DNA of 64,000 bases, taken from NCBI RefSeq assembly GCF_003334815.1, contig NZ_QOWO01000004.1; one strand, 5' to 3'. Below are positions 1-3,000 of the stretch, piece by piece (positions within the stretch are counted from its first letter, which is position 1; each line of letters begins with the position of its first letter). Position numbers: made by a program. The stretch is from Escherichia coli (GTDB lineage: Bacteria > Pseudomonadota > Gammaproteobacteria > Enterobacterales > Enterobacteriaceae).

Positions 1-3000
1 CGATAGAATCTCCCTTCATAGCACGATGCCTTTCACGTAACGGCATCGTGCTCGCACAGGTTCCGGCTAAGCACAACCAGAACGCGCATGTTTGACGCTT
101 ACCAAAAAATATTCTCACTCTCCACATTTGAATGTCAGACGAGCGACGCCATGTAATCCTGCACCTTCTGTCTTCAGGTCAACTATCTGCATTTTTTTGC
201 CCTGAGTAACACAGAAATGGGCTGCATCATTTTTTACTATATTTTCTGCACCAGATATTCTGCCCCTGGCTAAAGAAGCTTCGGCTTCGGTGTAGTATTG
301 GTTATCGAGTTTACGCTGAATATTACTTTTATATGCAAGACCAAATTTACCGATACTTGTCTCATCATTATGCACAGCACAACCAGACATAATAAAAATA
401 CTAATTAATGATATAGCAGCTATCTTTTTCATCTCACCTTCCCCCATTAAATACCAACGACACTCTCTAGTGTTTAAATATAATAATGGCATGATTATTA
501 TAATTGAATAGGATTATAATAAATGTTCTGTACAACATTTCCTACATAAGTAGGAATTACGGACATTGAGGCCCTTCAGGGTAACTCCATGGGGGCTTTA
601 ATATATTTGGAATAGTATATTTAAGATGCCACTGTTTGGTTGAATATTAGGCATATGCTCTTTTTTGAAATTTATCGGTGGCAGCCGTTAGTATTCGCTG
701 TCCCCATTGCAAGCTCCTGGTGGTAACCACTGAATCCTCCATACTTGAACTGACTTTTTATCCTCCGACTTTCATCCTGTTCTGACTCCACCTTTTGTTT
801 TCTGCTCTACACTATCTACAGACCAATCATAAAGGCACATACGATCATGGCAGAATTTCCCGCCAGCTTACTGATTCTTAATGGCAAAAGTACTGACAAT
901 CTACCCTTGCGCGAAGCAATTATGCTGTTGCGTGAGGAAGGAATGACGATCCATGTGCGGGTCACCTGGGAGAAAGGCGATGCCGCACGATATGTAGAGG
1001 AGGCCCGGAAGTTGGGCGTCGCAACGGTGATTGCCGGTGGTGGCGATGGCACCATTAATGAAGTTTCTACGGCGTTGATTCAGTGTGAGGGGGATGACAT
1101 ACCCGCGCTGGGAATTTTGCCATTAGGAACCGCCAATGATTTTGCCACCAGTGTAGGAATTCCTGAGGCACTGGATAAGGCGCTGAAACTGGCAATTGCC
1201 GGTAACGCCATTGCGATAGATATGGCGCAGGTCAACAAACAAACCTGTTTTATTAATATGGCGACAGGCGGATTTGGGACGCGTATTACCACAGAAACGC
1301 CGGAAAAATTAAAAGCCGCGCTGGGTGGCGTCTCTTACATCATTCATGGCTTAATGCGCATGGATACTCTGCAACCGGACCGTTGTGAAATCCGCGGTGA
1401 AAACTTTCACTGGCAAGGTGACGCCCTGGTCATTGGTATTGGTAACGGGCGTCAGGCCGGTGGCGGTCAGCAATTGTGTCCGAACGCGTTAATTAACGAT
1501 GGCTTGCTGCAACTGCGCATTTTTACCGGCGATGAAATTCTTCCGGCTCTCGTATCAACCTTAAAATCTGACGAAGATAACCCGAATATTATCGAAGGCG
1601 CTTCGTCGTGGTTTGATATACAAGCCCCACACGAAATCACTTTTAATCTTGATGGCGAACCGTTGAGCGGACAAAACTTTCATATTGAAATACTTCCGGC
1701 GGCGTTGCGTTGTCGATTACCACCAGATTGTCCATTATTGCGTTAATCAAACTATTCTCTCTTGAACCAGGGAGAATCCGAAATGCCGGATGCGGTGTAA
1801 ATACCTTATCCGGCATACAGAACAATACTACACCGTAATTAATTTTACCCGTGTCTTCTGCAATGCCAGTTTATCCACCTCTGATACAGCATCATCGGTA
1901 ATAATAATGTCAATTTTTTCGATTGGCAGTACCTGATTAAAACCGCGACGGTTAAATTTCGATGAATCGAGAACGGCAATCACTTTATTAGCGGCGGTGA
2001 CCATCGCACCGCTAATCGAATAACCTTCATTAAAGGTCGTAATACCATTAACCGCATCAATACCATCAGCACCGACAAACATTAAATCGGCATTAATATC
2101 CTGCAATGAACGCTCGGCAATGGAACCATGCATCGAGCGCGTTTTATGGCGGACCGTGCCACCACAGACGACCAGAGTAATGTCTTTATTTTCGGAAAGG
2201 GCAAACGCTGCCGGGAGACTGTTGGTAATCACCGTGATATTTTTAGCGGTCATTAATCCTTCGGCGATAAGCATTGTGGTACTTCCGCTGTCGAGAATAA
2301 CGGTCATCCCTTCATGGATCATTTTGACTGCCGCCTGCGCTATTCTGTTTTTTGGCGCGCTGGCGAGCTGAAATCGCTCTTTAAACCCGACTTCCTGGGT
2401 CTCGGTTTCACTATTACCGGACATTATTTTCGCCGCACCGCCATGAAAGCGCGTAACCACGCCTTTTTGTTCGAGAAAGCGCAAATCGGCACGGATTGTC
2501 GCTTCCGAGGCAGCAAATACTCCCGCCAGATCCTGAACAAGCACGGTTCCCTGTTCATTCACTAATTGGATGATCTTATTCCTTCGCTCGAATGAATTCA
2601 TCGTCATTTACCCATATTCAATTGTGGCTAGTGTAAACGAAGGGGGACCATTGGTGAATGATCTGTTTTGCACAATACCGGGCCAGCATCACGCTGGCCC
2701 GCGGTTTCATGGAATGAGCAACACTTTGCCCGGCATGGCATTACGAGCGATGTCACGCACCGCCTGGGTGAAGCTTTCAAAGCTTCCACGGTGAGCGATT
2801 AATGGCTCCAGGCTTAACTTACGTTCTGTCAGCAACCGGCTCGCCGTTTCCCACTCCTGCCCCGGCCAAGGGCTGGAATAGTTCATCCAACTGCCGATAA
2901 CCGTCAGCTCTTTACGCAATATTTTGCCAAACGTTGCCGATGTTAAATGCAGATCCTGATGCAACGTGCCCACCAGCGCCAGTTGGGCATGAGGACCGGC

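Follow-up and report, generated by a model that had tools for sequence, protein, structure and literature searches.

In the Escherichia coli K-12 strain MG1655 the gatR gene of the galactitol operon is disrupted by the insertion sequence IS3E, and this disruption accounts for the higher expression of the gat operon in that strain (PMC3045373; bioRxiv 10.64898/2026.01.05.697630). Relative to NCM3722, a further K-12 strain, gatR is disrupted only in MG1655 (PMC3045373). The MG1655 annotation (NC_000913.3) gives gatR (b4498) as two fragments joined around IS3E at 2170171..2171428, and it lists a second gene, mdtQ (b2139), as a pseudogene of 1436 bp. A recent review counts mdtQ among the conserved core genes of E. 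coli although it is annotated as a pseudogene, and describes the function of its product as not elucidated (PMC11762307). A tandem type I toxin-antitoxin locus, zorO-orzO/zorP-orzP, was first characterised in EDL933 (PMC3919570).

Here we analyse the yegR-to-cdd segment of an E. coli genome, a stretch of 64,000 nucleotides referred to below as the window. The original prediction, made from the sequence alone, was that both gatR and mdtQ are intact here and disrupted in K-12, and that together with a zor/orz insert they mark a non-K-12 background that is possibly O157:H7-like. We conclude, with a probability of about 0.95, that the source of the window is a wild rather than a laboratory E. coli, of the 52F4 clone or very closely related to it, with gatR and mdtQ in their ancestral, intact state.

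Results

The gatR reading frame of the window is an uninterrupted run of 259 codons from an ATG. RefSeq, in its annotation of strain 52F4, starts the gene at a second ATG two codons later, at position 2601, which gives 774 bp and 257 aa (WP_001295426.1). The same accession is the annotated GatR of 52F4, IAI1 and NCM3722, and the protein of the window is 100% identical to that of all three. It carries an N-terminal HTH_DeoR domain (Pfam PF08220, residues 8-60, E = 2.9e-16) and a C-terminal DeoRC sugar-phosphate sensor domain (Pfam PF00455, residues 85-238, E = 4.1e-51), and the presence of these two domains rules out a chance reading frame. NCBIfam holds no GatR-specific model; the best matches there are AgaR and SrlR, both under their cut-offs, as expected of a paralogue. 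The gene lies downstream of gatD and beside yegS, in the same position as in K-12, and is predicted from these features to encode the repressor of the galactitol operon, a member of the DeoR/GlpR family. The gat structural genes are likewise all intact (Table 1), including gatC, which is a 1358-bp pseudogene in MG1655 and intact in NCM3722, and the window is identical to 52F4 across positions 1..13012, an interval that covers the gat genes.

The site that IS3E occupies in MG1655 is empty in the window. In K-12 the junctions read ACGGTC-IS3E-GTCATCC, with GTC duplicated on the two sides of the element, whereas the window reads AACGGTCATCC. Once IS3E and one copy of GTC are removed, the K-12 gene encodes the same amino acid sequence as that of the window, and the ten nucleotide differences that remain between MG1655 and the window are all synonymous. 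No transposase, mobile element or insertion sequence is present in the 52F4 annotation over the matching 64 kb. A separate lesion was observed in the E. coli B derivative NEBExpress_Iq (NZ_CP053592.1, stretch 1507..3056), where gatR is broken by IS1A at a position that differs from that of IS3E in K-12; as this insertion is independent of the K-12 event, the galactitol repressor has been lost in a second laboratory lineage.

The mdtQ gene stands alone between yohF and yohP, as it does in other E. coli. The longest mechanical reading frame, 59169..60695, would encode 508 aa from an upstream TTG, and the ATG at 60605 yields the 478-aa product. The product matches the NCBIfam equivalog model NF008524 over 1-478 of 478 positions with 1024.4 bits (cut-off 650), and TIGR01845 with 274 bits (cut-off 210). 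A lipobox, L-A-G-C, was read directly off the translation without the use of a signal predictor; residues 17-22 are LMLAGC, and the lipidated cysteine would be residue 22. From family membership, MdtQ would be a lipidated channel of the TolC type in the outer membrane, with a putative role in efflux. Pairwise alignment places the K-12 lesion in a run of adenines at coding nucleotides 148-152: K-12 has four where the window has five, which produces a -1 frameshift at codon 50. Beyond this one-nucleotide gap the two genes differ by one substitution, at nucleotide 1425.

The original prediction is therefore upheld as regards the continuous gatR reading frame, the lack of an insertion sequence near it and the full-length MdtQ lipoprotein. 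The disruption of both genes in K-12 is correct for MG1655, by IS3E and by frameshift respectively, and for mdtQ it extends to NCM3722, but gatR is intact in NCM3722.

Table 1. Positions of the genes, RNA elements and comparison sites discussed in the text, numbered along the window.
Feature	Position	Strand	Basis
gatR, predicted repressor gene of the galactitol operon	1828..2607	-	ORF list
IS3E target site GTC, unoccupied in the window	2303..2305		blastn junctions to MG1655 overlap here
gatD, gatC, gatB, gatA, gatZ, gatY, all intact	2707..8076	-	ORF list; 52F4 annotation without pseudogene flags
gatC (PTS IIC), intact, 451 aa	3795..5150	-	ORF list
TPP riboswitch, upstream of thiM	16210..16306	-	Rfam, 71.2 bits; expected position
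yehA (putative fimbrial adhesin), split into ORFs of 224 aa and 132 aa	18254..19289	-	ORFs; frameshifted pseudogene in 52F4
yehH/molR-type DUF4132 gene, full length, 3795 bp	27349..31143	+	Intact in the window
Segment absent from K-12, most of the tandem zorO-orzO/zorP-orzP type I toxin-antitoxin locus	35183..36110		Gap in K-12 alignment
ZorO-like ORF, 29 aa	35273..35362	-	ORF
OrzO-P sRNA	35608..35681	+	Rfam RF02083, 88.8 bits (gathering score 60)
ZorO-like ORF, 29 aa	35881..35970	-	ORF
OrzO-P sRNA, just past the K-12-absent segment	36216..36291	+	Rfam RF02083, 99.9 bits (gathering score 60)
mlrA (yehV), intact, 243 aa	46671..47402	+	ORF; also intact in 52F4 annotation
Peptidase-S11 RNA motif, upstream of pbpG	56721..56801	-	Rfam, 72.8 bits; expected position
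mdtQ (yohG), full-length 478-aa TolC-like outer-membrane-factor lipoprotein gene	59169..60605	-	ORF and NCBIfam
mdtQ A5 run, coding nucleotides 148-152	60454..60458	-	Pairwise alignment with MG1655

All population counts given here are based on 5426 complete genomes of E. coli in RefSeq. The only one of these that is near-identical to the window in every segment is that of strain 52F4 (NZ_CM147848.1; GCF_055807995.1), from a calf in Switzerland. The two are collinear over 64 kb at 99.98% identity, with 12 substitutions and a single indel of 3 bp between them; none of the 5426 genomes is identical to the window base for base. An exact match to 52F4 was considered and rejected on the alignment, the 15,305 mismatches of an ungapped comparison being the product of a register shift. 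The indel is an in-frame TTT at window position 42635, inside yehQ, a gene of the SWIM zinc-finger family; the yehQ annotation of MG1655 is also shorter, at 1845 bp against 2001 bp. The window and 52F4 have in common a frameshifted yehA, which is split here and intact in K-12 and IAI1, as well as the zor/orz tandem. That 52F4 alone is so close in all segments, over 64 kb with so few differences, is also what would be seen if the window were 52F4 itself in another assembly version or sequencing run, rather than a distinct sister isolate. We consider this unlikely, though it keeps a real minority share of our confidence: 12 scattered substitutions, or some two per 10 kb, are above the expectation for two finished assemblies of one isolate, and a closely related strain of the 52F4 clone fits them better.

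Beyond 52F4, the nearest relatives change along the window. The next-best genome is at 99.6% in the interval from 1 to 8 kb and at 99.3% from 8 to 33 kb, where IAI1 and several non-O157 STEC and commensal strains then follow at 99.2%. From 33 to 58 kb (33001..58000) the next-best full-length match is at 98.7%, and over 57000..64000 many strains are at 100.0%, among them E. coli C and O145:H28. IAI1, which we take to be the reference for phylogroup B1, has the gene order of the window, an identical GatR protein, and intact mdtQ, mlrA and yehH-type genes, and is 99.1% identical over positions 1-35162. Its identity falls to 97.7% over 35217-51475 and stands at 98.9% over 51504-64000, and because of this fall past position 35217 the window is a mosaic and more than simply IAI1-like. 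In the intergenic interval between bglX and osmF, at 51475..51504, the K-12 and IAI1 alignments both break, a sign that a short repeat or otherwise variable element may lie there.

The zor/orz insert named in the original prediction is real. The whole tandem spans 35183..36291, between yehK and yehL, and contains a direct repeat (35221-35718 and 35829-36329) whose units are 88.6% identical. Its duplicated hydrophobic toxin reading frames, MDTLTQKLTVLIAVLELLVALLRLIDLLK and an MDS variant, each have 29 aa and are accompanied by divergent genes for the OrzO and OrzP sRNAs. Over the whole window, Rfam returned only the two OrzO-P sRNAs, the TPP riboswitch and the Peptidase-S11 motif, and nothing tied to gatR or mdtQ. 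As a pointer to O157 the insert fails, since at least 80% of the region 35100..36200 is present in 3360 of the 5426 genomes and zor/orz is thus not O157-specific.

An O157:H7-like background, that of a phylogroup E EHEC, would account for several features of the window. In O157:H7, too, gatR is intact, zor/orz stands as a tandem between yehK and yehL, and mdtQ has the 81-nt allele found here, and EDL933 is the strain in which zor/orz was first described. These common features are, however, majority-state characters of E. coli. The identity of the window to O157:H7 Xuzhou21 is 97.9% over 1..16309, 93.9% over 16400..18337, 90.5% over the yeh fimbrial genes at 19312..27545 and 96.9% over 29751..46738, and by these values Xuzhou21 is further from the window than K-12 or IAI1. 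The yehA-D region, at 90.5%, is where divergence from O157:H7 is greatest. Three structural differences were also found. Xuzhou21 has a 2.2-kb insert of three genes between thiM and rcnR, which adjoin each other in the window; the stretch from metG to yehI contains additional WGR/DUF4132 genes, none of which the window has; and after its btsS, at the mlrA (yehV) site, come a truncated fragment of 66 nt and the tail genes of a prophage, where the window has an intact mlrA. yehV is prophage-occupied in most O157 strains (PMC8309913). The O157 GatR differs from that of the window by E241D. An O157:H7-like origin, the part of the original prediction that does not stand, was rejected on the identity values and the three structural differences, and we regard it as extremely improbable.

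The comparison with K-12 supports the predicted non-K-12 background. Identity to MG1655 is 97.66% over 1..2305, 98.46% over 2303..35182, 97.91% over 36111..51475 and 99.73% over 51504..61847, with approximately 850 substitutions in the first 51 kb, and the 928 bp of the window at 35183..36110 are missing from MG1655 and from NCM3722. An identical match to a K-12 genome was looked for by alignment and none was found. The window has neither the mdtQ frameshift nor IS3E in gatR, nor the identity to MG1655 of about 99.9% or more that would be expected of K-12. A third gene, the yehH-type DUF4132 gene, was observed to be intact here and decayed in K-12: MG1655 has yehF and a yehH pseudogene at this site, and in NCM3722 the gene contains both a frameshift and an internal stop. 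In NCM3722 (NZ_CP011495.1) the 774-bp gatR is intact at 10852..11625 of the stretch examined and encodes WP_001295426.1, while mdtQ is annotated as frameshifted, with the same 1436 bp as in MG1655, at 17219..18654. Because NCM3722 combines an intact gatR with a frameshifted mdtQ, the IS3E insertion is a marker of the MG1655 sub-lineage only, whereas the frameshift in the mdtQ adenine run, seen in both K-12 strains examined, is a K-12-wide marker and the better of the two. An intact gatR alone cannot exclude K-12, since NCM3722 has one that encodes the identical protein, and it was rejected as a criterion for this purpose; of the two intact genes put forward as evidence for a non-K-12 background, mdtQ retains its value and gatR does not. 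The least credible reading of all is an origin in a K-12 lineage where the lesions of gatR and mdtQ never arose or have since disappeared, for although NCM3722 has an intact gatR with an identical protein, the last 10 kb or so of the window are 99.73% identical to MG1655 and mdtQ differs from its K-12 counterpart by a one-nucleotide indel and one substitution, the remaining 51 kb are at only 97.7-98.5% with their roughly 850 substitutions, the 928-bp zor/orz insert is missing from MG1655 and NCM3722, the yehH-type gene that is full length here is a pseudogene in both, and mdtQ is frameshifted in both.

The frequencies of intact gatR and mdtQ were estimated by proxy, from coverage for gatR and from exact alleles of 80 or 81 nt for mdtQ. 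gatR was found in 5110 of the 5426 genomes, with no match in the other 316. In 4757 a single place accounts for 80% or more of the gene, a count that can only be a maximum where functional gatR is concerned, since point and frameshift lesions go undetected by coverage and short insertions are merged into one place, so that the IS1 insertion of NEBExpress, for example, is counted as covered. About 350 genomes have gatR in two separate places, the pattern to which IS3E gives rise in K-12 derivatives. The K-12 A4 allele of mdtQ, as an 80-nt probe, has an exact match in 355 genomes, and among the exact matches listed the genomes are all 4.55-4.63 Mb; they include ER1709 and MT102, which we take to be K-12 laboratory derivatives. 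The A5 allele of the window, as an 81-nt probe, matches exactly in 3055. Each of the non-exact matches listed for the A4 probe spans 80 query bases with one additional base in the record, about 81 nt where the match is full length, which is what a fifth adenine in those genomes would produce. Intact gatR, intact mdtQ and the zor/orz locus are thus each the majority state in E. coli.

Discussion

Taken together, the sequence comparisons identify the segment as a mosaic of the kind typical of recombination, from a natural member of the 52F4 clone, and nothing in the data contradicts such a source. Intact gatR and mdtQ are the common, ancestral state of the species. The lesions of K-12 are, on this reading, derived mutations of a laboratory lineage, an IS3E insertion in gatR on the MG1655 branch and a slip from five to four adenines in mdtQ in K-12 generally.

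Within this mosaic, the central segment of about 25 kb from yehI to yohC is diverged by at least 1.3% from all complete genomes except 52F4. It could represent a haplotype block that is uncommon or was imported recently, with flanks that could be B1-like on one side and phylogroup-A-like on the other, but we put this forward tentatively and think it somewhat doubtful. If true, it would amount to ordinary recombination mosaicism, with no bearing on the function of gatR or mdtQ.

For strain attribution, the results mean that the window does not come from an MG1655-type K-12, and it should not be treated as EHEC-like. Everything seen here is already known, and the significance of the assignment extends little past bookkeeping. 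Its consequence for physiology concerns galactitol. According to family membership and the published work on K-12, GatR, a DeoR-type protein with an N-terminal helix-turn-helix and a C-terminal sugar-phosphate sensor domain, would repress the adjacent gatYZABCD genes until galactitol or its phosphate is present as inducer. Since GatR, the expected repressor of these genes, is intact here, galactitol catabolism would be regulated normally and be inducible in this organism, unlike in MG1655, where published data indicate that it is constitutive owing to IS3E.
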